Virus record (IMG/VR): IMGVR_UViG_3300027708_000053
Length of the DNA stretch: 64,000 nt
From: an uncultured virus (IMG/VR IMGVR_UViG_3300027708_000053)
Lineage: Duplodnaviria; Heunggongvirae; Uroviricota; Caudoviricetes
Reading direction: 5' to 3' (one strand)
Shown here in pieces: positions 5,391 to 35,957 of the stretch. The notes beneath the pieces are model-generated. The model had not been told where the DNA came from. It ran no database searches and worked only from the letters and a program-made list of their open reading frames with translations. The translations under genes and the position numbers were made by a program. Every line of letters starts with the position of its first letter. Position 1 is the first letter of the stretch.

Positions 5391-5992
5391 TGGTTAAAAT
5401 TATTACTGATTTTCCTATTGCTTATGAGAGTCATGATCATATTGTTCCATGTGGAACAAAGCAAGATAATACCAAGAATGGTGCATATGTAAGAGAACTT
5501 ATTCGTAGGTTCGGACCTGATATGCGGTACATGGATCTTGGTTGTGCCGGTGGTGGTTTTGTTTCTCAATTCTTGAAGAATGGTGTGCTTGCTGTCGGTA
5601 TTGAAGGCAGTGATTATGGTATGAAGAATGACCACGGAGAGTGGCCAAAGATTCCAAATAACTTATTTACTGCTGATATTACCAAGCCATTCCAGGTAGT
5701 TGATGATGAAGGCACTCGGATTGAATTTGATGTTATTTCAGCATTCGATGTGCTTGAACATATCCATGAAGTAGATCTACCACAAGTGCTTACAAACATT
5801 AATAATCACCTAAAGCAAGGTGGTATTTTCACTGCTGGTATTGCCACATTCCCAGATGAAGGTTATCATGTTACCCTTCAGCAAGAGTCTTGGTGGGATG
5901 CTTTACATCATGATCATGGTTTGATCCGAGTCGAACCACTTGAGAACTTTGGTCGATTGACATCTATTAATGCGGTGTATTTAAAGCGGTGA
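5390..5992 (+). CDS. Class I SAM-dependent methyltransferase
   Basis: MDLGCAGG motif I, FDVISAFDVLEHI, LKQGG. Confidence 0.88.
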   Translation: MVKIITDFPIAYESHDHIVPCGTKQDNTKNGAYVRELIRRFGPDMRYMDLGCAGGGFVSQFLKNGVLAVGIEGSDYGMKNDHGEWPKIPNNLFTADITKPFQVVDDEGTRIEFDVISAFDVLEHIHEVDLPQVLTNINNHLKQGGIFTAGIATFPDEGYHVTLQQESWWDALHHDHGLIRVEPLENFGRLTSINAVYLKR

Positions 5993-6975
5993 AACCTGTA
6001 GCTATTGTAACTGGATCATATGGATATATTGGTTCGGTTTTAACCAAGGTACTAAATGAATCGGGTTATTTTGTGGTCGGTATTGACTATAACCCACAAG
6101 CAGAACAATGTTGGACTCGTAATAAAACCAGAACAAAGTACTGTGATGATTTTCTATGTGATGACTTTGTTTCAGAAAAAGCGCTACATATTTTAAAAGA
6201 ATATCCAAATGCTACTGTATTCCATCTTGCAGCAGATAGTCTATTAGGTCCTAGTGCTTACGATCCTTTGAGCTATTATGAAAATAATACTGCAAAGACA
6301 TTAAAGTTAATACAAAATCTTAAGTCTACACATAAACTTGTCTTTGCCAGTACTGCAGCTGTATATGCTGAGACAGATAAAGTTGTCACTGAAAGTAGTG
6401 AAATTGATCCCCCAAATAACTACGGTAGGTCAAAACTTTGGTGTGAACAGATTATTGATTCATGCTATGAGATATTAAAGTTAAAAGCAGTATCATTTAG
6501 ATTCTTTAATGTAATCAGTGCATATGATGATATGGGCCAACTCCCCAATACACCGCATATTATTAATAAACTTTGTGATAAAGCAATTCACAAAGATAGT
6601 CCATTTGTAATCACTGGTGATGATTATGAGACAAAAGATGGTACATGTGTTCGTGATTATCTACATGTAGTTGATGTATGCAGAGCGCTTATTCATGCAG
6701 ATAAGTTTCTTGATGACAAGGATCCTTGTTCACTAAAGTTTAATTTAGGAACAAAAAGAGGAACATCCGTCAAGGAAATAGTTGATCTATTTAATGGTGT
6801 TTGCACATATGTTGAGCATAGAGTTGGTGAAAAACGAAAAGGTGATCCGGCTTTTTTAGTCGCAAATCCCGATAAGTTTATAAAAAAGACCGGATTCAAA
6901 TATCAATATAAAAGTAGTGATTTGGATTTAATGATAAAACAACATTGGAGCTATAGAAATAATGTCAGGCTTTGA
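5989..6975 (+). CDS. galE: NAD-dependent epimerase (UDP-glucose 4-epimerase-like)
   Basis: TGSYGYIGS, FASTAAVY, YGRSK, DGTCVRDYLHV. Confidence 0.9.
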   Translation: MKPVAIVTGSYGYIGSVLTKVLNESGYFVVGIDYNPQAEQCWTRNKTRTKYCDDFLCDDFVSEKALHILKEYPNATVFHLAADSLLGPSAYDPLSYYENNTAKTLKLIQNLKSTHKLVFASTAAVYAETDKVVTESSEIDPPNNYGRSKLWCEQIIDSCYEILKLKAVSFRFFNVISAYDDMGQLPNTPHIINKLCDKAIHKDSPFVITGDDYETKDGTCVRDYLHVVDVCRALIHADKFLDDKDPCSLKFNLGTKRGTSVKEIVDLFNGVCTYVEHRVGEKRKGDPAFLVANPDKFIKKTGFKYQYKSSDLDLMIKQHWSYRNNVRL

Positions 6976-7954
6976 AGAAAATGAAATCTCAGTAAAGTCA
7001 AATGGCGGTACTGAACAAACAAAGCGAATGGTTGCATCTCATTTGCCAGAAGGATTGGCAGATGATTTTCAAATTATTTGTTCACGTGTAAGAAAGATCG
7101 AAGAAGATAAGATTAGAGTTTACTGGTTACACGATCTGCCGAACGATCCCGAGACTAATCATCTAAAAGATTTATCAAGTCGTGACAGATTCCATAAAAT
7201 GGTTTTCTGTGGTCATTGGCAATATAATCAGTATTTAAATCTGTTGGATATTTCTCCTAATAATAAGTGTGCAGTTATTGATACACCTATTGTACCAATA
7301 GAATATAAGGTTAAGTCGACTGATCAAGTTCGGTTGATTTATACTAGCACTCCTCAGAGAGGTCTTGCTCTTCTTATACCGGTATTTGTTGAACTTGCAA
7401 AGACCAGAAAAAATATTCATCTTGATGTGTTCTCCAGTTTCTCAATTTATGGCTGGGATCAGGCAGATGAACAATTTAAGGATTTATTTGAAATCTGTAA
7501 GACTCATCCACAAATTACTTATCATGGATATGCTTCAAATGAAGAGGTAAGAGCAGCACAACAACAAGCACATATCTTTGCCTATCCTTCTATTTGGCAA
7601 GAATGTAATAGTCGTGCATTGATTGAAGCAATGAGTGCTGGTGCTCTTTGCTTGCATCCAAATCTTGCTGGTCTTTCGGATACATCTGGCAACTTAACAT
7701 CAATGTATCAATATGAAGAAGATCACAATGTACATGTGAATAAGTTTTACCATCTGTTAAATCATGCAATTGATTTGGTTCACAAGGAAGATGTACAAAA
7801 CTATCTTCGGTTTATTAAGCAGTATGCTGACACCAGATTTAATATTGTTAAGATTGCTGGTGAATGGGAAACTCTTCTTCTTTCATTAAAAGAACAATAC
7901 CCAACTGTTCAATCACGTTACCTACCAAAGAAAATGTTTAGATACAATACATGA
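6962..7954 (+). CDS. Glycosyltransferase, GT-B/GT4-like
   Basis: GGTE, YTSTPQRGL, FAYPSIWQE...IEAMSAG. Confidence 0.88.
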   Translation: MSGFEENEISVKSNGGTEQTKRMVASHLPEGLADDFQIICSRVRKIEEDKIRVYWLHDLPNDPETNHLKDLSSRDRFHKMVFCGHWQYNQYLNLLDISPNNKCAVIDTPIVPIEYKVKSTDQVRLIYTSTPQRGLALLIPVFVELAKTRKNIHLDVFSSFSIYGWDQADEQFKDLFEICKTHPQITYHGYASNEEVRAAQQQAHIFAYPSIWQECNSRALIEAMSAGALCLHPNLAGLSDTSGNLTSMYQYEEDHNVHVNKFYHLLNHAIDLVHKEDVQNYLRFIKQYADTRFNIVKIAGEWETLLLSLKEQYPTVQSRYLPKKMFRYNT

Positions 7955-8928
7955 TTATTACGTCAACTCCACTTAGAATAAGTTTTTTTGGTGGTGGGTC
8001 TGATATCCCACAATATTATAACAAAAGACCTGGTATGGTTATTTCAACCTCTATTGACAGACAAATACAAATTGCTGTCAATAGGTGTGAGACTCCACAT
8101 ATTAGAGCTGTTTATTCTGAAATGGAAGTGGTTAATAATGTTGAGAATATTAAGCACACTCGTATTAAGGAAGTTCTAAAGTACTTTGCAATAAGTAATA
8201 ATATTGAAATTTGTAGTTTCTCTGATGTCTCCACAAAAGGTACTGGATTAGGATCATCATCAACATTTACGGTTGGTCTACTGAATGCACTTTATAATCA
8301 AAAGAATTATTTCTACAATAGAAAAGATCTAGCCGAAACTGCTTGTGAAATTGAAATTGATAAATTAAAAGAACCTATTGGTAAACAAGATCAATACGCT
8401 GCAGCATATGGTGGATTCAATGTAATACGATTTGATGCATCAAATGTGGATATTACACCAATAAATGTTGGCGCAAATGTATTAAGAAAACTAAATCAGA
8501 ATTTGATGTTTTATTTTACTGGTATAAGTAGAAATACTTCCGATATTCTTTCGGATCAAGTTAGTGGTATTGTTGATAATGGAACAACCGTATTTGATAA
8601 TACTACTAGACTCGTTGATCTAGCAGAAGATGCTTTAAAGTTCTTACAGCAGAATAAACTAAATGATTTTGGTTCACTACTGGGTGATGGCTGGAATATT
8701 AAAAAGAAACTCTCAACCAAAATATCCAATTCTGATATTGATGAGATGTATGATACAGCAATAAATGCAGGCGCTCTTGGTGGTAAGTTATTGGGTGCTG
8801 GCGGTGGTGGATATCTTATGTTTTATGTACCAGAATCATGCCAAAATAAAGTTTCACTTGCAATGTCAAAATACAAAAAAGTAAATTTTAATTTCACGGA
8901 CAAAGGATCTACAGCGACATGTCTATGA
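7951..8928 (+). CDS. hddA: GHMP kinase, HddA-like heptose-7-phosphate kinase
   Basis: PLRISFFGGGSD, GTGLGSSS, GKQDQYAAAYGG, GGKLLGAGGGG. Confidence 0.88.
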   Translation: MIITSTPLRISFFGGGSDIPQYYNKRPGMVISTSIDRQIQIAVNRCETPHIRAVYSEMEVVNNVENIKHTRIKEVLKYFAISNNIEICSFSDVSTKGTGLGSSSTFTVGLLNALYNQKNYFYNRKDLAETACEIEIDKLKEPIGKQDQYAAAYGGFNVIRFDASNVDITPINVGANVLRKLNQNLMFYFTGISRNTSDILSDQVSGIVDNGTTVFDNTTRLVDLAEDALKFLQQNKLNDFGSLLGDGWNIKKKLSTKISNSDIDEMYDTAINAGALGGKLLGAGGGGYLMFYVPESCQNKVSLAMSKYKKVNFNFTDKGSTATCL

Positions 8929-17811: not shown

Positions 17812-17993
17812 TGAATAGTACCAAAAGAAAACTATACGATCCTATAGTTTGGAATATCTTTCAGCAAGTAGACAATGTATATGGCCATCATAATGCATCT
17901 AATCTTTATAAATTCAACGAACATACTGGTAACACAGTTGAACTTGTAAAAGAGCAATTATGGTATGATATAAAGTATAAGTGCAAAAAATGA
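17811..17993 (+). CDS. Small hypothetical protein
   Basis: Coupled 60-aa ORF, AT-rich. Confidence 0.55.
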   Translation: MNSTKRKLYDPIVWNIFQQVDNVYGHHNASNLYKFNEHTGNTVELVKEQLWYDIKYKCKK

Positions 17994-18223
17994 CTACTAT
18001 TAAAGATCAAGTTTATAATCAAGTCAATATTCAAGCCTATTATCAAGTCGAGAATGAAGTATGGAATCAAGTCTATCATCAAATCAAAACTCAAGTCCAA
18101 GATCAAATCAGGCATCAAGTCTATATGCAATTTGAAGAAGATCTATTATATAAATCGAAACTAATTAATTGGCAACGTATTGTGACATATATGGAGAGTG
18201 ATCTACCGGATCTGATGAATTAG
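17990..18223 (+). CDS. Q-V-x-x repeat mini-protein
   Basis: QVYNQVNIQAYYQVENEVWNQVYHQIKTQVQDQIRHQVYMQFEEDL, 4-residue periodicity. Confidence 0.65.
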   Translation: MTTIKDQVYNQVNIQAYYQVENEVWNQVYHQIKTQVQDQIRHQVYMQFEEDLLYKSKLINWQRIVTYMESDLPDLMN

Positions 18224-21086: not shown

Positions 21087-21299
21087 ATGACTCGATCGGT
21101 GTTCGAAGTTCTCGAGATGATCAATGAGAGCATTGTTGACTTGATGCATGAAATCGATCCGTACGAATATGCCCGTGGCGCTGATATTGAAGAGCAGATG
21201 ATTGAACTCAGGTTTTTGCTTGACGAATATCGTAATCTCTATCATGCCTGGGACTTGAGTGTGCTGCACGATCGCATGAAGGAAGCGTATGTGGATTAA
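21087..21299 (+). CDS. Hypothetical protein
   Basis: AAGGAG RBS. Confidence 0.75.
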   Translation: MTRSVFEVLEMINESIVDLMHEIDPYEYARGADIEEQMIELRFLLDEYRNLYHAWDLSVLHDRMKEAYVD

Positions 21300-21374
21300 C
21301 AATTTGTAATAATTTAGTCATTGACAGCCGTGCCCATACCTGGTATAATCCACCTATGATCAAGGAAACAAACT

Positions 21375-21554
21375 ATGAACGTATCCACCATCATCGACCG
21401 GCTCCATGCCGCCGCCTGGGCATCAAAGAATGACCGGGAATCGAATTTCATCTCGGCTCTGGCTAACCGCCTCGAGCATCGGTCGTCCCTCTTCGAGAAG
21501 GATTTGACCAAGGTCGAGATTGCCATGATCAGCCGGTATGCGGGTTTGGCCTAA
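21375..21554 (+). CDS. Hypothetical protein (59 aa)
   Basis: MNVSTIIDRLHAAAW...; promoter plus AAGGA RBS. Confidence 0.72.
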   Translation: MNVSTIIDRLHAAAWASKNDRESNFISALANRLEHRSSLFEKDLTKVEIAMISRYAGLA

Positions 21555-21654
21555 GGTTAACTGTTTGTAATAATTTCTCGGTTGACAATGGCCTCTGGCC
21601 ATGGTATAATCACTTTACAAGGAAGGGCATAGCCCTTCTAAACAGGAAACAAAC

Positions 21655-21921
21655 ATGACGATCAAGTTCAAGGATATAACCATTTTGCAGATTGCTAAGC
21701 TTGGCACTCAGCATGAGGAATATATCTATGATGGAATTCGTAGCGTAAAGATTCGCGAGCCAGGTCCAGCTCGTGTAGCTGCCCTGACTTTGATCCGTGA
21801 AGGTCAACTCACGTTAGGTGGTGACGAACTGATTCGTGAGGAATATATGCCTCTCATTGCGCCTATGGTAACTAAGCACGGTACCATGATTGCATATGCT
21901 TTGCGGATCTTGGAAGCATAA
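21655..21921 (+). CDS. Hypothetical protein
   Basis: Promoter plus AGGA RBS. Confidence 0.75.
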   Translation: MTIKFKDITILQIAKLGTQHEEYIYDGIRSVKIREPGPARVAALTLIREGQLTLGGDELIREEYMPLIAPMVTKHGTMIAYALRILEA

Positions 21922-22005
21922 CCGTAAATTAACAATTTGTAATAAGTCAGTCGTTGACAACGGCCTCTGGCCATGGTATAATCCACTTCTAAACAGGAGA
22001 CAAAT

Positions 22006-22212
22006 GTGACCCAGTACGAAAAAGATACCCTGGCTATGATGACCCCCAAGGAACAGGAGCTTCTGCTTCGTGTCCTGGCCAAGTCTCCTGCCCGTGAGGG
22101 TGGCATTGTCAGTCTGGTGGCTGAACGTCTGCGGGATATGGTGAATAGCGGTCTGATGGATCGCCTCTATCCGGAACTCGAAGTTGAGCCTGCTGCTCCG
22201 GAGGTGTTTTGA
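22006..22212 (+). CDS. Hypothetical protein
   Basis: GTG start with AGGAG RBS after promoter. Confidence 0.7.
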   Translation: MTQYEKDTLAMMTPKEQELLLRVLAKSPAREGGIVSLVAERLRDMVNSGLMDRLYPELEVEPAAPEVF

Positions 22213-22383
22213 ATGGATGAATTGGAAGTCTTGCAAAAGCAATTTGAAGAACTTCAAGAGAAGTTCCGAACGGCTTGTTGGCTATTGCGTGATGCTGCAG
22301 AAGAGTTAGGTAGAATTGATTATCCCGACGTGAACTATCCGCAGAATAGTATTGAACAGTTTTTAAAAGAGAATGATAAGTGA
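22213..22383 (+). CDS. Hypothetical protein (56 aa)
   Basis: GGAGGT RBS; MDELEVLQKQFEELQ. Confidence 0.65.
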   Translation: MDELEVLQKQFEELQEKFRTACWLLRDAAEELGRIDYPDVNYPQNSIEQFLKENDK

Positions 22384-22619
22384 TGACTGATCGCGGAGAC
22401 ACTTACGGCGAGATATTCTGGGTCCGTGCGATGGATGGCAGCTGGCGAAACGCCTCTGCCGGTGAGGCGTGCATCGAGATCACACGATTGCGTGCCGAGA
22501 ACACACGGCTGCGGGAGGCTTTGGAGGATTTGCTGGATGATAGTTGGGTTCGGGATTTCGGCGAATGGTTTGAAGATCGACTGAAACAAGCCCGCGCAGC
22601 TTTGGAGATGAAGCCATGA
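22380..22619 (+). CDS. Hypothetical protein
   Basis: EITRLRAENTRLREALEDL...ARAALE, a typical phage small-protein motif. Confidence 0.7.
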   Translation: MMTDRGDTYGEIFWVRAMDGSWRNASAGEACIEITRLRAENTRLREALEDLLDDSWVRDFGEWFEDRLKQARAALEMKP

Positions 22620-22780
22620 GCGATCGCTATCCAAACTATCCTGTATATCAACCTATCCGTACCGTCTGGACTAGTGGTCCGACCCCACAACAGCCCATAG
22701 GATGTATTTGTCCACCTACTAGTGAACAGACATGTATGAATCCTGTGTGCCCTAGGAAGCCTATTGGTAAAGCACAATGA
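22616..22780 (+). CDS. Cys/Pro-rich small protein (54 aa)
   Basis: GCICPPTSEQTCMNPVCPRK; GGAG RBS; ATGA overlaps at both ends. Confidence 0.6.
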   Translation: MSDRYPNYPVYQPIRTVWTSGPTPQQPIGCICPPTSEQTCMNPVCPRKPIGKAQ

Positions 22781-22959
22781 TGTTAGATATGACTAACATT
22801 CCAGATGTTGTATATCATATGCGTACTTCCATTGTAGTTAAACTTATGTATCAGTATGGCGCCATCCAAGCACTTGGATATATGAATCAGCTTGCGCCTC
22901 TATCTATTGGGCCTATGACTAAACTTCAATTGATGGAGGATTTGTGTAATGTCAGCTGA
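22777..22959 (+). CDS. Hypothetical protein
   Basis: Coupled ORF. Confidence 0.6.
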   Translation: MMLDMTNIPDVVYHMRTSIVVKLMYQYGAIQALGYMNQLAPLSIGPMTKLQLMEDLCNVS

Positions 22960-23161
22960 TCCTTATTGGTCTGGTTATGATGACTATAAGCGTGGTCGGC
23001 ATTTTGCAGATAATCCTTATAACCATGACACTGACTTGAGTCTGCATCTGATGTGGGGAGAAGGTTATCTGAGTGCATATGAAGATGTCATGAAGAGGAT
23101 TGAGGCTATTGGCAATCAGGCACGTGGTCCTGATCGACCGCCGCCTTGGCAGAATCCTTAG
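22949..23161 (+). CDS. RMF-like small protein
   Basis: YWSGYDDYKRG...NPY...WGEGY; GGAGGA RBS. Confidence 0.58.
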   Translation: MSADPYWSGYDDYKRGRHFADNPYNHDTDLSLHLMWGEGYLSAYEDVMKRIEAIGNQARGPDRPPPWQNP

Positions 23162-23264
23162 TATTAACATTTTGTAATAAAATAATTGTTGACATTGACG
23201 TATTCTTTTGGTATAATAGCCATATAAGGAAGGAAAGGCATAGGGCCTTTCAGGAGACATTATT

Positions 23265-23720
23265 ATGAACATCATTGAACGACTCGAAGAACTATATGCT
23301 CGCGCCAGGGATAGTGAAATTGTCACTATCCAGGATGCTATTCGGCTGATTGAACTCTATGATGATGCACTACATACTATTGCTAAGGTAAATCCTGGCT
23401 CCAACGTTGCATTGGATAATGTTGTCCATATGGCAAAGGATACTATTGCACTAGGTCAGCCACAATATAACCGATCCGAGAAGGCTCCTGAGGAAACCGT
23501 TGTAGATCCGAAGGTTTTAGCATTTGATCGTAATCGCCATGGTAGTCTCTATGATCGAGGCAGTGCTGATAGTTATTATGATAGGGCACGGTATCCTCAT
23601 TGGTATCCAAATGGTACTTATAATGGTGACTGTGTTCTTGCTGTAACTGAAGAAGAGATTGCCGAATATATGGCTGGATACGATTGGAACGAGGAATACG
23701 GAGACAAAAAGGGATGGTAA
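23265..23720 (+). CDS. Hypothetical protein
   Basis: HGSLYDRGSADSYY...EYMAGY C-terminal motif; promoter plus AGGAG. Confidence 0.78.
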   Translation: MNIIERLEELYARARDSEIVTIQDAIRLIELYDDALHTIAKVNPGSNVALDNVVHMAKDTIALGQPQYNRSEKAPEETVVDPKVLAFDRNRHGSLYDRGSADSYYDRARYPHWYPNGTYNGDCVLAVTEEEIAEYMAGYDWNEEYGDKKGW

Positions 23721-23941
23721 CTGCAATTCAAGCTTCTAGTGATATAACTTTATTCTCTCATAGGGATCTATACGCGGAATGCACGGCCGCATATATTGAT
23801 CTTGGTACGGCATGGATGCAACCTAGGTACTATTTCACACATGAAGAGCTATTGGATTGGTGGAATTCAGTATATGAATGGGATAATGCCATGGAAGCGT
23901 GGGTTTATACACCAGAAGTACAAAAAGCCCTAGAACGTTAA
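23714..23941 (+). CDS. Hypothetical protein
   Basis: Coupled ORF. Confidence 0.6.
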   Translation: MVTAIQASSDITLFSHRDLYAECTAAYIDLGTAWMQPRYYFTHEELLDWWNSVYEWDNAMEAWVYTPEVQKALER

Positions 23942-23964
23942 CATAAATTTATGATATGTTAAAG

Positions 23965-24018
23965 AAACCCGGTATTGTTGACTTAATCGTTGACAAGTAC
24001 CGGGTTTTTTGTTATAAT
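23965..24018 (+). terminator. Intrinsic terminator hairpin enclosing the -35 of an early promoter
   Basis: AAACCCGGTA 23965-74 / TACCGGGTTT 23998-24007 plus T-run; TTGACA 23990, TATAAT 24013. Confidence 0.7.
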
Positions 24019-24052
24019 AAGACTATAGGAGACATTAGATGATGTATATAAT

Positions 24053-24241
24053 ATGACAATTGGTGAAAAAATCAGTTCTGCATCAGACATGGCCGGCGAT
24101 ATAATATGGAAAGCAGTACGTGTCAAAAATGCTGATTATCATATAGGATTTTACGTCAATAATGAAACAGGATATCAAGTATTAGATCAAGTTCGCGAAC
24201 CTCTATTGGATCAATTTGCCGAAGATCTAGATGATGTCTGA
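24053..24241 (+). CDS. EDL-family mini-protein 1
   Basis: Ends DQFAEDLDDV. Confidence 0.72.
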   Translation: MTIGEKISSASDMAGDIIWKAVRVKNADYHIGFYVNNETGYQVLDQVREPLLDQFAEDLDDV

Positions 24242-24398
24242 TACAGAGAGTAAAATCATGGGTGAAGGTAATCTTTTTCATATTGTATATGAGAATGTCG
24301 GATTTGATATGGTATGTGAGATTGAAGACGAACTTTGGCATGATGATTATTCGAAATCGATTTATTCCCAAATTGAAGAAGATCTAGAAAATGTCTGA
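24234..24398 (+). CDS. EDL-family mini-protein 2 (54 aa)
   Basis: MSDTESKIMG...SQIEEDLENV. Confidence 0.7.
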   Translation: MSDTESKIMGEGNLFHIVYENVGFDMVCEIEDELWHDDYSKSIYSQIEEDLENV

Positions 24399-24576
24399 AA
24401 TTACTGGATGTATTAAAGGATCAATTCAAGATTCACTCGATTTGTATCTTGATGCATTATCCGAGGAAGTACTTGTAGGTGTGACTCTAGGTGATGTTAG
24501 TGCTAAAATTGGACTTGAATTACGATATAACCTTCAAGATCAGATAGATGAGGATCTAGATGTCAATTATAAATGA
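24391..24576 (+). CDS. EDL-family mini-protein 3
   Basis: Ends DQIDEDLDVNYK. Confidence 0.72.
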   Translation: MSEITGCIKGSIQDSLDLYLDALSEEVLVGVTLGDVSAKIGLELRYNLQDQIDEDLDVNYK

Positions 24577-24745
24577 AATCAAATATCAGGTTAGAATTCA
24601 AGCCGGTCATAAGCTCCATGAACACGAAAGTGTTTCCTTGGAGGTTTGGTGTGATGCACGTATTATTCAAGATTATGCTGAGCCCTTACTTATTATGCGC
24701 GGTATAATTCAAGATCAAATGGAAGAGGATCTAGATCTTGTCTAA
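24560..24745 (+). CDS. EDL-family mini-protein 4
   Basis: Ends DQMEEDLDLV. Confidence 0.72.
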   Translation: MSIINEIKYQVRIQAGHKLHEHESVSLEVWCDARIIQDYAEPLLIMRGIIQDQMEEDLDLV

Positions 24746-24932
24746 GAATATACGATATATAATAAAAAGCCAGTGTGCAGAAGAAGCCTCGGGTAGAACA
24801 TGGGATACTACAGATGATGGTACCATGCGCCATATAGCATTGAATATACGTATGGATTTGAATGGTCGTATTCATAGACCGATATTGGATAATGTGTTTA
24901 TACAAGTGGATGAGGATTTACGTGATGTCTAG
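24738..24932 (+). CDS. EDL-family mini-protein 5 (TTG start)
   Basis: Ends IQVDEDLRDV. Confidence 0.7.
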   Translation: MSKNIRYIIKSQCAEEASGRTWDTTDDGTMRHIALNIRMDLNGRIHRPILDNVFIQVDEDLRDV

Positions 24933-25104
24933 AATTGTTGAACGGATACATACTGATACATCGGATACTGCCTGGAAACAAACGGCAATGTCGAGTGGAT
25001 TGGAGGTTCGTAATAAAATTTGGCTTAATCATTTTGTTGTAATTGAAGCTATAATTGAAGATTATATGATCAGTCAAGTTTGGGAGGATTTAGACGATGC
25101 TTGA
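24925..25104 (+). CDS. EDL-family mini-protein 6
   Basis: Ends SQVWEDLDDA. Confidence 0.72.
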   Translation: MSRIVERIHTDTSDTAWKQTAMSSGLEVRNKIWLNHFVVIEAIIEDYMISQVWEDLDDA

Positions 25105-25243
25105 AAAGTTAAATGCTTATATTGACGTTGTTACTCTTACAATTGTAGCAATTGCTATGACTATAACAGGCTTTGCATTGATTGCTGTAGGTATTTTTGG
25201 AGTACACGAATTTATTACAATAATGAGATTGTTATATCAATGA
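25097..25243 (+). CDS. Small membrane protein (48 aa)
   Basis: MLEKLNAYIDVVTLTIVAIAMTITGFALIAVGIFG...; GGAGGA RBS. Confidence 0.62.
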   Translation: MLEKLNAYIDVVTLTIVAIAMTITGFALIAVGIFGVHEFITIMRLLYQ

Positions 25244-25398
25244 ATATAGTCAATAAAATCCAAACCATGCGACATATTGATACATCTGAAATTTGTCCTC
25301 GTTTACAATTTGCTGTCGGTGATAAATTATTGCATGAAATTATGCTTGTTTTGGTCCCATTAAAAGTACAAATAAAAGAAGATCTAGATAATGCTTAG
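25240..25398 (+). CDS. EDL-family mini-protein 7 (52 aa)
   Basis: Ends VQIKEDLDNA. Confidence 0.68.
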   Translation: MNIVNKIQTMRHIDTSEICPRLQFAVGDKLLHEIMLVLVPLKVQIKEDLDNA

Positions 25399-25588
25399 AA
25401 TGAATGAAACAGCACGTAATATCATGGCGGATGATGTATCAGATGCTATTTGGCACAAATCTCAGGGTGTATTTGCTGATGGTATTCGTAGTTATGTGAT
25501 TCGATGGGTTGAACCAGCATTTATAGATGACATTTATACGTTACTCGATGAACAAATCAAGGAAAATCTAAACTATGAAGACTATTGA
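25391..25588 (+). CDS. EDL-family mini-protein 8
   Basis: Ends EQIKENLNYEDY. Confidence 0.7.
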   Translation: MLRMNETARNIMADDVSDAIWHKSQGVFADGIRSYVIRWVEPAFIDDIYTLLDEQIKENLNYEDY

Positions 25589-25754
25589 TGTGCTTTTGAG
25601 TCATGTATTGGATGATTCTATGCGCGAATTGCATAAATCTGTTCGAAAAAACGTTCGGTTTAAGACATATGCTGGGCTACAAATGCCAATTTATGATAGA
25701 TCGTTCAATATAAGTCTAGAGAACCAAGTCGCTGAGGATATTAACGAAAGTTAA
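25575..25754 (+). CDS. EDL-family mini-protein 9 (59 aa)
   Basis: MKTIDVLLSH...NQVAEDINES. Confidence 0.68.
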   Translation: MKTIDVLLSHVLDDSMRELHKSVRKNVRFKTYAGLQMPIYDRSFNISLENQVAEDINES

Positions 25755-25818
25755 CAAAACTGTTGTTGACATGACCATCGGTGTTTGATATAATCTTTTT
25801 ATAAACAGGAGATTTACT

Positions 25819-26154
25819 ATGGATGTTCTATCAGCCTACATAACCCGTATGCGAGACAAAGCCGTGCTCGGTAATCTGAGTCACGAGGTGATGCCGCCTC
25901 TGATATGTCGTGATGGATTCAAGATGTCCGTCCAGGCCAGTTCCTATCATTATTCTTCACCGAGGTCTCATGTCGGCCCGTGGTCTTCCATGGAGGTAGG
26001 TTTTCCTACCAAGCCAGTGCCAGAACTTCGTCAATGGCGCGAGGACATGGGTGATGACCCCTCAGATGAGGACTGTGTTTTTGGCTGGGTTCCAGTCGCT
26101 AAGATATTGGAAACAGTTGAAAAGCATGGTGGTTGTGCTCAGCTAGAAGATTAA
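25819..26154 (+). CDS. Conserved phage hypothetical protein
   Basis: CRDGFKMSVQAS..HYSSPR..EVGFP..KHGG. Confidence 0.8.
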   Translation: MDVLSAYITRMRDKAVLGNLSHEVMPPLICRDGFKMSVQASSYHYSSPRSHVGPWSSMEVGFPTKPVPELRQWREDMGDDPSDEDCVFGWVPVAKILETVEKHGGCAQLED

Positions 26155-26255
26155 CAAAAGTTAACAAATCTTTTGTTGACACGACCCCAAAAGTTTGTTA
26201 TAATAACTATGTTAGCCAGACCAATGATGGTCAAAATTGAAAAGGACATTATATT

Positions 26256-26639
26256 ATGAAGAATATTACACCGTCTATGAGCACAAACTATAATTTGTAC
26301 ATGTTTGTTCTTAAGCAAACACATCTGTCGCGACCGGAGGCCCTTATTAAGGCCGGTCTACTTTTAAATACCGACGATCATAAGACAACAACTGCCGCTG
26401 TGCATAAGTACACAGCATGGCTTAGGCAGTGGAAGGATTATTATGGTTGGGATTTGGGTTCGCGGGGTACTCAACAAGCGCTGCGTGGTATGCCTGCTGA
26501 AATGTCGACTCGGATTAATGTGGAACAAAATAGTGTTCCTGTAACAAATACTCTTGAGACCGCACTCAAGACTGAACTGAATGCTCTTGTAGACAATGCC
26601 GTGCGGGCAATTCTTGCACGGATTACCGTAAAGGCATAA
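26256..26639 (+). CDS. Hypothetical protein
   Basis: Promoter plus AAAGGA RBS. Confidence 0.72.
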   Translation: MKNITPSMSTNYNLYMFVLKQTHLSRPEALIKAGLLLNTDDHKTTTAAVHKYTAWLRQWKDYYGWDLGSRGTQQALRGMPAEMSTRINVEQNSVPVTNTLETALKTELNALVDNAVRAILARITVKA

Positions 26640-27055
26640 TGAAAATGCAACTCCCCACCGAAGGTTCAGTCGTAGAGGTCGTATTGGACAATGCTGCAGC
26701 ACGTTATGCTATGGCTCCATGTTCAGTACATAGGGTACAGCCTACATTGACTCTTCGTGGGGTTGTTGTACCTACTCCTAAGTGGATGACTTCTATTGCA
26801 GATCTTACTATTCTAAATAGTGAGACCAAGGGCTTCAATTATATCCCTATGCATAAAGTCTTGTCGATTGGTGGTGTTACGGTAAAACAACCGAAGGTCA
26901 CTGTCGACAAGGTCTTAAATGTGACTTCATCTAAAACCGGTGAAGTCTATACCGTGCGACAGGATGGCCGCACTAAACGTTGGTCGTGTACTTGTATTGG
27001 ATTTCAATTCCATAAGAAGTGCCGACATGTAACAAAAGCGATGGAGGATCAATAA
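26639..27055 (+). CDS. SWIM zinc-finger protein
   Basis: YTV...WSCTCIGFQFHKKCRHV. Confidence 0.8.
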   Translation: MKMQLPTEGSVVEVVLDNAAARYAMAPCSVHRVQPTLTLRGVVVPTPKWMTSIADLTILNSETKGFNYIPMHKVLSIGGVTVKQPKVTVDKVLNVTSSKTGEVYTVRQDGRTKRWSCTCIGFQFHKKCRHVTKAMEDQ

Positions 27056-27303
27056 TGGCTATTACAGATACCGAAACATTTCGTGCCCTCGTCTCTCAAG
27101 GTCCAACTGTTATTATGGTCGAAAAGACACATATGTTGGCCTTGTTAGACGAACGAGATGAACTACGTGAGGCTCTTACAGCACTATTCACTGTAACAGA
27201 CTGTGCACATCAAGTTGGCCATTTTGTTTCAAAAGGCCATATTACAGACACAGGTAATGCTCTCACTAGAGCCAAAAACATTTTGTTCAAAAATAACCCT
27301 TGA
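27055..27303 (+). CDS. Hypothetical protein
   Basis: MAITDTETF...; GGAGGA RBS. Confidence 0.68.
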   Translation: MAITDTETFRALVSQGPTVIMVEKTHMLALLDERDELREALTALFTVTDCAHQVGHFVSKGHITDTGNALTRAKNILFKNNP

Positions 27304-27356
27304 CTTTTTACTAAAACCATATATAATATCATTATAACCAACAAGGAGACTATATC

Positions 27357-27719
27357 ATGAAGATTATGCGTAACATGGCTGCTCAGGGTGACTTCATTAT
27401 CCTGCGTATTCAGAATATCCCCGAGGGTGTTGTTCCCGTTGCTCCTGAGAATGGCAAGGTAATTGTTGCTCACAGTGAAACTGGGCACAATCACGTGATG
27501 GAAGCAACTCGAGTCGAGGCATTCGAAATTCCTGCCGATAAGTCTAACTCTCAGAATGTTGACTTGTACAAGATGTTCCTTCTTGTCAAGGAAGACACTC
27601 GGATTGACCATCTTCGATCTTTCGATACTCACGAGGCTATTATGGTCCCACCCGGTACCTACGAGATTCGCCGTCAACGTGAATATACTGCCGAAGGTTT
27701 CCGTAAGGCTGCCGACTGA
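27357..27719 (+). CDS. Conserved partner of DUF6745-type proteins
   Basis: QGDFII, AHSETGHNH, HEAIMVPPGTYEIRRQREY; own promoter at 27300-27327. Confidence 0.75.
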   Translation: MKIMRNMAAQGDFIILRIQNIPEGVVPVAPENGKVIVAHSETGHNHVMEATRVEAFEIPADKSNSQNVDLYKMFLLVKEDTRIDHLRSFDTHEAIMVPPGTYEIRRQREYTAEGFRKAAD

Positions 27720-27779
27720 TCTTTGATCTTAGGTTTCATTTTTAGAAGCTTTCCACTTATATAATGTAAAGGTGATAAT

Positions 27780-28646
27780 GTGATTACTAGTTTGAATGAA
27801 GACCAACTGGCGCAAATTCCCGTCTATCGGGACCGCTGGTTGGAAATCGGTCTTCGTACTGAAGTTCTTGACTTTGCTGCAGCTAAGACTGCTCTTGCAA
27901 AGTGCTACACGTCTCGTGATCTTGAAGCACCTTCTAGTGTTTATTATGCTACTGGACCTATGGATGCCTATAAGATCTATAAGTCTGTAAAGCCTAACGG
28001 TACTTCTACTGAATTCATGAACTCTATGATCTATGGTGCTCATGATAGTTCTTGGTTGAGTTTCTATGCTTACTTCAAGGAAGTCTGCGGTCTGGATCTG
28101 GAGATTGTCCAACCGCTGATTGAATATGCGCAAGTTGCTTGCTGGACTTATGTCGACAAGGACTTTGCTATTATTCAAGAGTTCCCGATGTATATCCGAT
28201 TCGATGACCAGAACCGTCTGCATTGTGAGGATGGTCCCGCCATTGAATATCAGGACGGTACCATGGTGTTTGCCTGGCACGGTGTTCGTCTGAGCCGTGA
28301 TAAGTGGTTCTGGATCACCAATAAGCAAGAGTTGACCGCTAAGGCCGCTCTCAAGGAAGACAACCTGGAACTCCGTCGAGTTGCTTGTGAAATCCTTGGT
28401 TGGGTTCATATTCTAAAGGAATTGAAGTCCAAGGTTATTGACCAGGATGAGGATCCGCAGATTGGTACTCTTCTGCAGGTGAATATTCCTGATATTGGTA
28501 AAGAACAGTTCCTGCGTGTTGTTTGTGGTACTGGTCGTGAGTTTGCTATTCCTGTGCCGCCTACTGTCAAGACCGCGTTGGAAGCAAATGCCTGGACTTA
28601 TGGTGTTGACCCCGAGGTGCTTCGAGACTTGGAATTCCGTACTTAA
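27780..28646 (+). CDS. DUF6745-like protein
   Basis: YGAHDSSW, RLHCEDGPAIEYQDG..FAWHGV, NLELRR, CGTGREFAIPVPP, A-EANAWTY. Confidence 0.75.
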   Translation: MITSLNEDQLAQIPVYRDRWLEIGLRTEVLDFAAAKTALAKCYTSRDLEAPSSVYYATGPMDAYKIYKSVKPNGTSTEFMNSMIYGAHDSSWLSFYAYFKEVCGLDLEIVQPLIEYAQVACWTYVDKDFAIIQEFPMYIRFDDQNRLHCEDGPAIEYQDGTMVFAWHGVRLSRDKWFWITNKQELTAKAALKEDNLELRRVACEILGWVHILKELKSKVIDQDEDPQIGTLLQVNIPDIGKEQFLRVVCGTGREFAIPVPPTVKTALEANAWTYGVDPEVLRDLEFRT

Positions 28647-28672
28647 TTTTTAAAACATATTTGGTTTAACTC

Positions 28673-28706
28673 GGAGGGTGGTATTAAGTTATCACCCTCT
28701 TTTTTT
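28673..28706 (+). terminator. Intrinsic terminator
   Basis: GGAGGGTGGT...ATCACCCTCT followed by a T-run. Confidence 0.8.
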
Positions 28707-28719
28707 GTGCATTTTTTTG

Positions 28720-28748
28720 TTGACAGTGATATATGATTGTGTTATAAT
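28720..28748 (+). promoter_or_regulatory. Early promoter of the second EDL array
   Basis: TTGACA-17-TATAAT. Confidence 0.78.
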
Positions 28749-28783
28749 CAGTAATGACATAATATGGATAATATAAAAGGAAT

Positions 28784-28975
28784 ATGAAAATGTATAGTCA
28801 AACCATAACTCAAATAATGGATGATGTTGAGGATACTATTAGGATAAAGGTTAGGAAATATGTAGTATATCATAACTTTATGGAAGTTTTTGAACTTAAA
28901 CATATTGGTCAGATACTTGATTGTGAATTTCATATTAGAGAACAATTTGTGGAAGATGCAGAAAATGAAAGTTAA
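28784..28975 (+). CDS. EDL-family mini-protein 10
   Basis: Ends EQFVEDAENES. Confidence 0.68.
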   Translation: MKMYSQTITQIMDDVEDTIRIKVRKYVVYHNFMEVFELKHIGQILDCEFHIREQFVEDAENES

Positions 28976-29129
28976 AGATATTATCTTTCCACCATCGATA
29001 TGGAATATTGGAATTCCTGCTCATAATCTAATTAAATGCGATGTCTATGATCATAACCAAGTATTATATGATATTATGTTGTATGTTCCACATATTCATG
29101 AACAACTTAGAGACGATTTAGATGATTAG
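28965..29129 (+). CDS. EDL-family mini-protein 11
   Basis: Ends EQLRDDLDD. Confidence 0.68.
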   Translation: MKVKDIIFPPSIWNIGIPAHNLIKCDVYDHNQVLYDIMLYVPHIHEQLRDDLDD

Positions 29130-29310
29130 TTTATGCGCTTACCGTGTTTATTCGAGAAAAGAATGTGAATTTAAAACCAATAAAGAAGTAAAATATCTTA
29201 TTTCAGAAAAAGTAAGAAATGGACTACTCGATGTAGAAGTATTTTCAAAAGTGAGAGTTGCGGCATGGGTGGAAGTTACTCATCAACTCAGAGACGATCT
29301 TGAAGATTAA
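29122..29310 (+). CDS. EDL-family mini-protein 12
   Basis: Ends HQLRDDLED. Confidence 0.68.
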   Translation: MISLCAYRVYSRKECEFKTNKEVKYLISEKVRNGLLDVEVFSKVRVAAWVEVTHQLRDDLED

Positions 29311-29351
29311 AAAATGTTAACAAAAAAGTTTTGAAAACCGCAAAATTTTGG

Positions 29352-29380
29352 TTGACATTACCCCCAAAGTTTGTTATAAT
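29352..29380 (+). promoter_or_regulatory. Early promoter
   Basis: TTGACA-17-TATAAT. Confidence 0.8.
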
Positions 29381-29427
29381 AACTTTATTAACAGGGCATA
29401 TCGCCCATCATATGAAAGGTTTATATA

Positions 29428-32537: not shown

Positions 32538-32613
32538 GGTTCCGTGGTCTAAGGGATAAGGCATCGGCCTTCTAAGCCGTACGATAGGGGTTCGAATCCT
32601 CTCGGGACCGCCA
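32538..32613 (+). tRNA. tRNA-Arg(TCT)
   Basis: Acceptor GGTTCCG/CGGGACC, anticodon loop CTTCTAA, TTCGAAT T-loop, encoded CCA. Confidence 0.93.
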
Positions 32614-32619
32614 ATATTT

Positions 32620-32697
32620 GGACCTGTAGCTCAGTTGGTTAGTAGCGGACCGCTCATAACGGTTTGGTCGTAGGTTCGAGTCCTACCGGGTCCACCA
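32620..32697 (+). tRNA. tRNA with CAT anticodon (probably Ile2/lysidine type, alternatively elongator Met)
   Basis: Acceptor GGACCTG/CGGGTCC, loop CTCATAA, GTTCGAG, encoded CCA; no initiator features. Confidence 0.9.
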
Positions 32698-34952: not shown

Positions 34953-35021
34953 GTTATGAGGGTTTACTCTCATATACAAATATACGATCATACAAATATA
35001 CAAAACATACGGAGACTATAC

Positions 35022-35957
35022 ATGGACTTTTCACAACTTAAGCGCAATTCTGGTAAGAACTCACTTGAAAAGCTTACCGCAGAACTTGCCAAACTCAATA
35101 CACAAGGTGAATCCAGCAAGGGCGATGACCGCTTCTGGTATCCTAATGTAGACAAGGCCGGTAATGGCTTTGCAGTCATTCGATTCCTCCCAGCTCCCAG
35201 TGATGAAGATGTTCCTTTCATTCGCATGTTCGAGCATGGTTTCAAGGGCCCTACCGGTCTTTGGTATATCGAAAACTCTCTTACAACTATTGGTAAGACC
35301 GACCCAGTTGGTGAATTGAATTCCAAGCTTTGGAATATTTCCGAGGATGATAATTCACCTACTCGTAAACAGGCACGCGCTCAAAAGCGTAAGTTGACTT
35401 TTATCAGCAATATCTATATCATTCAAGACCAGGCCAATCCTGAAAATAACGGTAAGGTTAAGCTGTTCAAGTTTGGCAAGAAGATTTATGATAAGCTCAA
35501 CGAAGCTATGAATCCTCAGTTTGCGGATGAAGAGCCTATGAATCCTTTTGATCCATGGTCTGGTGCTAATTTCAAGCTTAAGATTCGTAATGTTGAGGGT
35601 TACCGCAACTACGATAAGTCTGAATTTGCCTCTGCTGCTCCTCTTTTTGAAAATGACAATCAAATTGAGGCTATTTGGAAGCAGGAACATTCACTACAGG
35701 CATTCCTTTCTCCATCTAACTTTAAGACCTATGATGAACTTAAGGCTAAGTTGAACAAGGTTCTTAATCTTGATGAAAGTACCCCTGCTGGTTCTCGCCA
35801 GGCTGCAGCCAATCGGAAGCAGAATGATGAGGATGAACTTCCTTGGAAGGAATCGGCGCCTCAACGTGAGGCGCCTGCGCGCTCTGCACCATCCACTAAT
35901 ACAGATGATGATGACGATGGTGAAGATTTAGAATTCTTTAAGCGACTTGCAAGTTAA
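35022..35957 (+). CDS. 32: Single-stranded DNA-binding protein gp32
   Basis: DDRFW, GNGFAVIRFLP, WYIENSLTT, GANFKLK, acidic tail. Confidence 0.97.
   Translation: MDFSQLKRNSGKNSLEKLTAELAKLNTQGESSKGDDRFWYPNVDKAGNGFAVIRFLPAPSDEDVPFIRMFEHGFKGPTGLWYIENSLTTIGKTDPVGELNSKLWNISEDDNSPTRKQARAQKRKLTFISNIYIIQDQANPENNGKVKLFKFGKKIYDKLNEAMNPQFADEEPMNPFDPWSGANFKLKIRNVEGYRNYDKSEFASAAPLFENDNQIEAIWKQEHSLQAFLSPSNFKTYDELKAKLNKVLNLDESTPAGSRQAAANRKQNDEDELPWKESAPQREAPARSAPSTNTDDDDDGEDLEFFKRLAS

Follow-up and report, generated by a model that had tools for sequence, protein, structure and literature searches.

We analyzed a 64,000-nucleotide stretch of DNA (the window) from an uncultured virus of the Caudoviricetes (IMG/VR record IMGVR_UViG_3300027708_000053), in which positions 24053 to 25754 of the plus strand hold a run of small, overlapping genes whose products end alike. 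An earlier note, made from the sequence alone, had described nine open reading frames (ORFs) here with a common C-terminal motif. All nine are present at these positions, encode 52 to 65 amino acids, and have the endings given there (QFAEDL, QIEEDL, QIDEDL, QMEEDL, QVDEDL, QVWEDL, QIKEDL, QIKENL, and QVAEDI), with the stop codon 3 to 5 residues later. The run is split, as the note had also observed, by a motif-free ORF of 48 amino acids, whose hydrophobic and possibly transmembrane character is judged from its sequence.

In a six-frame translation of the window, the pattern Q..E[DN][LI] matched 15 times, and 10 of these matches, all on the plus strand, lay within five codons of a stop. Three hundred first-order Markov resamples gave a mean of 1.83 matches (maximum 6) and of 0.56 stop-proximal matches (maximum 4); the motif frequency is far above chance. 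A looser pattern together with a family hidden Markov model (HMM) added four members beyond the reported span (m0 and n1 to n3 below), so that the family has 13 members in the window and, with 12 related contigs added, 17 BLAST-unlinked subfamilies among 211 sequences. The proteins are 52 to 66 amino acids long, and the isoelectric point (pI) lies between 4.05 and 5.5 in 10 of the 13 members (full range 4.05 to 6.57). We refer to the run at 24053 to 25754 as array 1 and to n1 to n3 as array 2.

22777 to 22959, plus strand: m0, 60 residues, solitary, ends QLMEDLCNVS; relatives have the unrelated x0 (ends QVVEDICDED) at the same site
24053 to 24241, plus strand: m1, 62 residues, pI 4.2, ends QFAEDLDDV; subfamily of 31 sequences
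24231 to 24398, plus strand: m2, 55 residues, pI 4.05, ends QIEEDLENV; among the related contigs only in L007
24391 to 24576, plus strand: m3, 61 residues, ends QIDEDLDVNYK
24560 to 24745, plus strand: m4, 61 residues, ends QMEEDLDLV; its tail DNA is that of the extra gene x1 in L004
24738 to 24932, plus strand: m5, 64 residues, TTG start at 24738, ends QVDEDLRDV
24925 to 25104, plus strand: m6, 59 residues from the ATG at 24925, ends QVWEDLDDA
25097 to 25243, plus strand: hydrophobic peptide, 48 residues, without the tail and not a family member; variable or replaced in relatives
25240 to 25398, plus strand: m8, 52 residues, ends QIKEDLDNA; absent in L005, L006, L010, and L037
25391 to 25588, plus strand: m9, 65 residues, ends QIKENLNYEDY
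25575 to 25754, plus strand: m10, 59 residues, final gene of array 1, ends QVAEDINES
28784 to 28975, plus strand: n1, 63 residues, ends QFVEDAENES
28965 to 29129, plus strand: n2, 54 residues from the ATG at 28965, ends QLRDDLDD
29122 to 29310, plus strand: n3, 62 residues, final gene of array 2, ends QLRDDLED
17981 to 18223, plus strand: possible distant relative, 80 residues; family HMM E-value 4.6e-4

For m6, the ATG at 24925 is most likely the start, in preference to that of an 80-residue ORF.

Conservation of the tail and divergence of the bodies

The tail is a stretch of about 16 residues, phi-xxx-phi-xx-Q-phi-x-E-D-L-D-x-V (phi, hydrophobic), and it is the only element conserved across the family. 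Its glutamine is invariant (17 of 17 subfamilies) and sits 8 to 11 residues from the C-terminus. Counted from this glutamine, a hydrophobic residue is found at +1 in all 17 subfamilies, at −3 in 16, at −7 in 15, and at +8 in 10, while +3 is Glu or Asp in all 17, +4 is Asp in 16, and +5 is Leu, Ile, or Ala in all 17. The pattern is that of a predicted amphipathic acidic helix.

The remainder of these proteins, which the earlier note had called nearly unalignable, proved to be so. When body-only alignments were built from orthologues and compared profile against profile, the best of the 136 pairs formed by the 17 subfamilies reached a probability of 30.5%. Weak but colinear matches (15 to 30% probability) link m6 to m9, m9 to n1 (at the N-terminus), and m10 to m5 (before the tail), and a D-x-S-D-x-x-W-like stretch occurs near the N-terminus of m1, m6, m9, and n1. 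With full sequences, leave-one-out HMMs tested on 10 members placed the one left out between first and third of 982 ORFs in nine cases, and 109th in the case of the member at 22777; without the tail, the ranks were 7th to 165th, with E-values of 1.2 to 63. Common descent of the whole proteins is, on these comparisons, possible but not shown. The earlier description of a family whose tail is constant and whose bodies have diversified thus holds.

Structure prediction gave the following picture. AlphaFold2 models based on orthologue alignments have three helices in m9 (residues 3 to 27, 32 to 39, and 42 to 63; mean predicted local distance difference test score (pLDDT) 55) and one long helix in m10 (residues 2 to 58; mean pLDDT 78), and the tail is helical in both. 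Neither a fold nor a common fold is established, because these models are too weak (predicted template modeling score (pTM) 0.30 to 0.36). An Atlas model of m1 (pLDDT 0.60) had only generic helical-hairpin matches. In a language-model search, m1 and m10 shared the same three unnamed viral clusters (scores 0.88 to 0.92), which serves as a lead only.

To compare constraint on the two parts, we used Nei-Gojobori-type counts within 12 subfamilies on DNA from 10 related contigs, pooled over pairs. The proportions of synonymous and nonsynonymous differences (pS and pN) were 0.221 and 0.123 in the body (omega 0.51) and 0.264 and 0.049 in six tail codons (omega 0.155), while the post-tail codons that overlap the next gene had an omega of 0.42. 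Tail pN was lower than body pN in 10 of the 12 subfamilies, and tail pS was higher than body pS in 6 of the 12. In the bodies, pN was below pS in 11 of the 12 subfamilies and close to pS in m2, m3, and m4.

The tail codons also adjoin the start of the following gene. Genes overlap by 4 to 17 nucleotides at all 11 internal junctions, and a GAGGA, GAAGA, or GGAGGA tract lies 4 to 10 nucleotides upstream of the next start. The earlier note had taken the Glu-Asp codons to double as the Shine-Dalgarno (SD) element of the next gene. This stood in part: GAGGAT or GAAGAT is indeed found at that distance and GAG is over-used (6 of 11 tail Glu codons, against 23% of Glu codons genome-wide), but the other 5 of the 11 window members with Glu have GAA, and orthologues alternate between GAA and GAG. 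For Leu at +5, the codons CTA, TTA, TTG, and CTT are all used. The invariant glutamine lies about 20 nucleotides upstream of the next start, and the final genes of the two arrays (25575 to 25754 and 29122 to 29310) retain the tail with only a promoter cassette downstream. As a separate observation, D-L-D written as GAT-CTA-GAT forms a palindrome of 8 to 10 nucleotides (ATCTAGAT; GATCTAGATC in m4) with GATC and CTAG inside it.

These data bear on two explanations in which the tail peptide is not what is conserved. In one, the junction is kept for its role in SD or termination-reinitiation signaling or in recombination, with the peptide as a by-product; the purine-rich tract before downstream starts, the excess of GAG and CTA at the Glu and Leu positions, the confinement of GATCTAGA to the array, and the indel breakpoints that fall in the junction (see below) would all agree with it. 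We nevertheless regard it as highly improbable, and it is already largely refuted. Between body and tail, pN falls 2.5-fold but pS does not fall; the glutamine and the hydrophobic residues at −7, −3, and +1 lie beyond SD distance and have varied codons; and orthologues switch between GAA and GAG. An explanation by SD alone, which the earlier note had named as the outcome that would undo its reading, fails because tail omega is low, tail pS shows no reduction, and the tail persists in array-final genes, which are followed by no coupled gene; the position of the glutamine speaks the same way. The synonymous and nonsynonymous counts, the test which that note had proposed, point to constraint on the protein. 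As judged from codon comparisons, the tail is shown to be kept by selection on the protein and not on the nucleotides, and the nucleotide layer agrees with a junction that has a shared descent or has undergone gene conversion, and with a modest SD benefit. In the other explanation, the ORFs are not genes but a non-coding repeat that is open by accident. The ORFs match no Pfam, PHROGs, or NCBIfam family and there is no direct protein evidence, as would be expected of such a repeat. We find it scarcely credible, since the frames are open in 12 related contigs at 15 to 50% amino-acid divergence, body pN is below pS in nearly all subfamilies (11 of 12), the gene overlaps are precise, and Rfam has no match between 21 and 31 kb.

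The possible distant relative at 17981 to 18223 consists largely of Q-[VI]-x-x units of four residues, about ten in number (DQVYNQVNIQAYYQV...), which lead into an internal QFEEDL with 25 residues after it. A database search with it returned itself and one relative. Its membership in the family is uncertain on sequence grounds, and the tail may have originated as the end of such a repeat.

Gene gain, loss, and exchange at the tail junction

The 12 related contigs, some of them partial, carry arrays with differing gene sets, in which the ORFs are intact despite the divergence given above. Every contig that spans the position of m1, m3, m5, m9, or m10 has that gene, whereas m2, m4, m6, m8, and the hydrophobic peptide are variably present. 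Between m5 and the next gene, m6 is absent in L007, L008, L010, L011, L013, and L037. The subfamilies x0, x1, x35, and x54 are found in relatives only, and at the solitary site m0 is swapped for the unrelated x0 while the downstream gene is unchanged. At least seven polymorphisms affect whole units: x1, m2, m4, m6, m8, the m0/x0 swap, and n2/n3.

In every case among the 12 contigs, the codons after the tail track the downstream gene and never the upstream body. The end of m5 reads ...GATGTC-TAG-AATTGTT before m6 and ...GATGTC-TGA-AAAGTTAAATGC before the hydrophobic peptide, and m3 acquires the ending of m4 where m4 is missing. A base-by-base alignment revealed that m4 of the window bears the tail DNA of x1 in L004, which is the product expected of a tail-tail crossover, and in L011 the tail is a hybrid whose crossover lies elsewhere. 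Among the sequencing data, DNA run X7 has a contig joint (24930>25116) that removes m6, and another joint in the same run steps back 189 nucleotides over m1; we read the latter as a second, tandem m1-like unit.

The contig comparison, the aligned m4/x1 event, and the X7 deletion joint support the earlier proposal that recombination at the junction expands and contracts the family. Within the arrays, the breakpoints lie in the coding tail or gene overlap rather than in a promoter cassette; cassettes adjoin the array ends (m10, n1 to n3) alone. On the evidence of these alignments, the tail codons and the overlapping next start are shown to provide the homology for whole-gene insertion, deletion, and replacement. 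Because this is the exchange substrate, each exchanged unit would carry or regain the same tail, and because the exchange site is the conserved gene end, genes may be shuffled within the operon without loss of frame or of translational coupling.

Several further variants were observed at these genes. Orthologues of m1 and m5 from other samples (P0030, P0076, and P0092) have tandemly duplicated tails (...DQFAEDLVDQFAEDLDDV; IQVVQVDEDL), which suggests slippage or unequal exchange inside the tail. The hydrophobic 48-residue peptide has 40%-identical variants in some relatives, and in L004, L005, and L006 its place is taken by an ORF of about 76 residues that is unrelated to it (MMNTDAIWLTLG...; 6152 to 6400 in L004). 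At the head of array 1, a five-codon mini-ORF (MMYII; 24039 to 24056) with a good AGGAG overlaps the ATG of m1. Relatives have an in-frame N-terminal extension of 3 to 4 residues (MYNMTIGEK...) in place of the mini-ORF, and a variant that lacks 2 nucleotides at 24046 is present in one DNA run; for these reasons the m1 start region of the window appears to carry a 2-nucleotide insertion.

Genomic setting and distribution of the family

The window contains genes for gp33, gp59 (helicase loader), and gp32 at 34.1 to 36.0 kb and baseplate genes (gp5, gp6, gp7, gp48, and gp54) at 44 to 59 kb, with dCMP deaminase, PhoH, and exonucleases upstream. The best matches of gp32 among GenBank phages are about 53% identical, and the sequencing runs that contain the stretch are labeled freshwater or lake-water metagenome. 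Over the array, an IMG/VR record has 100% identity. By its gene content and these labels, the source is an uncultivated freshwater T4-like myovirus.

Between 21 and 31 kb, the plus strand has nine sigma-70 promoters that match the consensus at 12 of 12 positions (TTGACA-17-TATAAT with an extended −10 TG). They recur as cassettes of 50 to 68 nucleotides and flank both arrays, as follows.

23962 to 24018, plus strand: head of array 1, a stem-loop and a perfect sigma-70 promoter (TTGACA-17-TATAAT with TG, 12 of 12, at 23990 to 24018), resembling the promoter early stem-loop (PeSL) cassettes discussed below
25735 to 25794, plus strand: promoter cassette closing array 1 (ATTAAC-N4-GTTAAC ... TTGACA-17-TATAAT), conserved (cassette families D3, D4, and D8) and containing the last m10 codons
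28673 to 28748, plus strand: head of array 2, a terminator-like hairpin (28673 to 28700) and a perfect sigma-70 promoter (28720 to 28748)
29352 to 29380, plus strand: perfect sigma-70 promoter closing array 2

The stem-loop at 23962 to 24010 overlaps the −35 box and has a predicted free energy of −26.7 kcal/mol (z −6.2). The T4-type late promoter TATAAATA does not occur between 11614 and 34945, and the Rfam search of 21 to 31 kb had no match. As read from this layout, each array is one early operon of apparently coupled genes between promoters, in a hyperplastic region. In metatranscriptomes, three short identical contigs from two runs, which may contain DNA, cover parts of the array. A small ATTAAC-N4-GTTAAC hairpin precedes several of the promoters (21295 to 29390), and ORFs with ...ED-stop endings extend into cassettes, namely m10, n3, and a 111-residue ORF at 25819 to 26154 that ends AQLED.

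The family is, as judged from database searches, new, unnamed, and restricted to this lineage. No member scored above threshold in Pfam-A (best E-value 0.0028, below the cut-off) or PHROGs v4 (best 0.029), NCBIfam 20 matched 0 of 17, and a sequence profile search of the PDB had no hits at E-values up to 10. Megablast of the array against GenBank phages found no match, and tblastn of m1 and m9 reached E=4 at best. A database search with a family HMM, which the earlier note had proposed, was run exhaustively with HMMER over 1.84 billion representatives and found the same lineage only. Of the 11 proteins with E-values of 0.001 or less, ten are small proteins of the same subfamilies; the eleventh, of 567 residues, aligned over 21 residues only and was set aside as presumably spurious. 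A word-indexed search with the family alignment listed 120 matches, of which 117 bear the tail; those listed are orthologues (about 65 to 97% identity) of single window members, and all but one, which is evidently mislabeled, are unnamed or "hypothetical." None of 8000 scored candidates was a longer or fused form at an E-value up to 1, which is weak evidence against such forms. When IMG/VR was scanned with a two-tail DNA pattern, 5 of the 28 loci found were true arrays, all of this lineage and three of them from contigs already in the comparison; the other 23 had no or one tail ORF, near the number that we estimated by hand for chance (about 22). One locus from the metagenome scan, L015, was a false positive in an unrelated 1063-residue protein. 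We found no description of such a family in the literature, which is weak evidence because the family has no name.

Two likenesses of the tail to known peptides were considered. The bacterial beta-clamp-binding motif (QL[SD]LF or QLxLxL) agrees with the tail at positions 1, 2, and 6 but not at position 4, where the tail has Glu or Asp in 17 of 17 subfamilies, and membership in that class was rejected. The acidic C-terminus of gp32 (34956 to 35957; ...GEDLEFFKRLAS / ...DDDDDGEDLEFFKRLAS) contains EDLE, like the EDL[DE] of the tail. This likeness is too short to serve as evidence and is kept as a lead for the idea of a decoy of the gp32 tail.

Other features of the window stand apart from the family. 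A DUF6745 domain (E-value 9.7e-29) lies in a 288-residue phage protein (27780 to 28646), and our literature search found no paper on this domain. A 138-residue early protein (26639 to 27055) has a SWIM zinc finger at its C-terminus (Pfam 20.7 bits, cut-off 19.6). Genes for tRNA-Arg(TCT) and tRNA-Met(CAT) adjoin each other at 32538 to 32697, and a sugar-modification cluster at 5989 to 8928 encodes a nucleotide-sugar epimerase, a glycosyltransferase, and a third conserved protein.

Interpretation of the tail and comparison with known systems

Genes of the hyperplastic regions of T4-like phages are mostly unexplained ORFans and are thought to serve host takeover or counter-defense. Here one protein motif unites 13 such ORFans, or 17 subfamilies in the lineage, and provides a single experimental handle of 16 residues. 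We hypothesize, with about half of our confidence behind it, that the arrays encode a lineage-restricted family of small, mostly acidic, helical early proteins with a common interaction helix as their tail. This helix would dock all members on one partner, or would mediate self-assembly or co-assembly, while the fast-evolving bodies (omega about 0.5, and near 1 in three subfamilies), under weak or diversifying selection, would supply differing specificities. Host-takeover or counter-defense proteins, made within minutes of the onset of infection, would be expected to show such a pattern. The roles that the earlier note had suggested, as adaptors, decoys, or anti-defense inhibitors, are likewise hypothetical. 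The purine-rich Glu-Asp codons would give the next gene an SD-like element, as a secondary benefit rather than as the cause of conservation. Should the tail prove to serve docking or targeting, the array would amount to a natural effector library aimed at one hub.

A more specific form of this hypothesis, which we consider unlikely, makes the tail a portable address tag by which small effectors from a changeable library all reach one destination, and makes its coding DNA the recombination handle for cassette exchange. A hub protein of the host, a phage machine, or the prohead might serve as this destination; in the prohead, cleavage would follow the conserved Glu. If true, the tail would be the C-terminal, early-gene counterpart of the internal proteins (Ips) of T-even phages and their capsid targeting sequence, and any cassette captured in frame would be tagged automatically.

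Several points weigh against the interaction-helix hypothesis. The partner on which the tail would dock is hypothetical, and the m9 and m10 models are too weak to tell an exposed tail from one packed in the fold. Support from transcripts is limited to the three metatranscriptome contigs, which do not demonstrate transcription. The near equality of pN and pS in the bodies of m2, m3, and m4 could reflect relaxed constraint rather than an arms race. The omega values pool non-independent pairs, with 2 to 10 sequences per subfamily, and exchange of tails between paralogues could inflate tail pS. Finally, CTA makes up 6 of 11 tail Leu codons, compared with 10.6% of Leu codons in the large genes of the phage, and all five GATCTAGA octamers of the window lie in tails of array 1 (24224 to 25389); gene conversion or shared descent therefore adds to the uniformity of the junction.

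The conservation of the tail might instead reflect the packing of an ordinary protein family. A possible, if doubtful, alternative is that the members are fast-diverging paralogues with one small helical fold, in which the tail is the most constrained element, in the core or at a homodimer interface, and has no docking role of its own or shared outside partner. The similar length of the bodies before the glutamine (43 to 55 residues) would fit this, as would the N-terminal D-x-S-D-x-x-W-type motif of four members, a proline 10 to 20 residues before the tail in several members, the weak body-profile matches at corresponding positions, the language-model clusters common to m1 and m10, and the all-helical character of both AlphaFold models. 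Yet no body comparison is significant, either by profile or by leave-one-out HMM; a core helix would not be expected at a fixed 8 to 11 residues from the C-terminus with invariant polar Gln, Glu, and Asp; and the models are too weak to speak on packing. The data do not separate an interaction helix from the best-conserved helix of one fold. We think it very unlikely that the tail is a C-terminal address or processing tag like the targeting sequence of T-even Ips and that the proteins are packaged, injected, or routed as a counter-defense library. This idea draws on the phi-x-E at +1 to +3 in 15 of 17 subfamilies (Asp in the other two), which resembles the T4-type prohead protease motif, and on the start of T4 IpII and IpIII, MKTYQEFIAE, which has Q..F-I-A-E before the cut (read from NC_000866). 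In the available text of PMC5694885, a Glu precedes the cut made by T4-type proteases, and T4 Alt is trimmed at both ends, and in that of PMC3012670 and PMC12373910, diverse T-even Ips have the targeting peptide alone in common and each acts against a different GmrSD nuclease. However, phi-x-E is a low-information match, the members are acidic while T4 Ips are basic (pI 8.9 to 9.5), the tag is at the opposite terminus, and the arrays have early sigma-70 promoters only, with TATAAATA not nearby. A search by PF07068 for the head genes of the lineage, from which its protease motif could be learned, matched 0 of the 5 records searched, and control genomes were equally unmatched.

Three known systems resemble the arrays in part. 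Segmental amplification of tifA, a small counter-defense gene, in T4 (eLife 2022, PMC9391042, in its available text) is likewise a case in which recombination alters how many copies of small early genes a T4-type phage carries. It differs in being the laboratory amplification of one gene, whereas the arrays represent an old, diversified natural family.

The T-even Ips are, like the array members, small and diverse proteins of T4-type phages that are encoded at polymorphic loci and have one short terminal peptide in common. As described in the available text of PMC12373910, at least ten are known (Ip1, Ip2, Ip3, and those of relatives), and each of the three of T4 blocks a different GmrSD nuclease; there and in the corresponding part of PMC3012670, they appear as small, non-essential, specific counter-defense inhibitors. 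In the Ips, the tag is N-terminal and removed by the prohead protease, and the proteins are basic and packaged. In the array members, the tag is C-terminal, the proteins have a pI of 4.05 to 6.57, and the promoters are of the early type only, so that neither the late timing nor the basic character of Ips is indicated. An MKTYQEFIAE-type N-terminus occurs in none of the 13 members, whose N-termini also differ from one another, and there is no sequence similarity to Ips.

The closest likeness in genome organization is to the PeSL cassettes, which mediate modular shuffling in the hyperplastic regions of T4-type phages according to the available text of Arbiol et al. 2010 (PMC2839356) and Comeau et al. 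2014 (PMC4122927). In both settings, small ORFans lie among strong sigma-70 promoters and stem-loops, and recombination at short conserved sequences gives rise to the insertions, deletions, and replacements that set close relatives apart; the arrays themselves are bordered by such cassettes. PeSLs are intergenic regulatory cassettes, whereas the exchange substrate in the arrays is coding, consisting of the tail codons and the overlapping start, and lies within one operon. Exchange sites that are internal and coding are, as read from these alignments, a new twist on the shuffling of hyperplastic regions.

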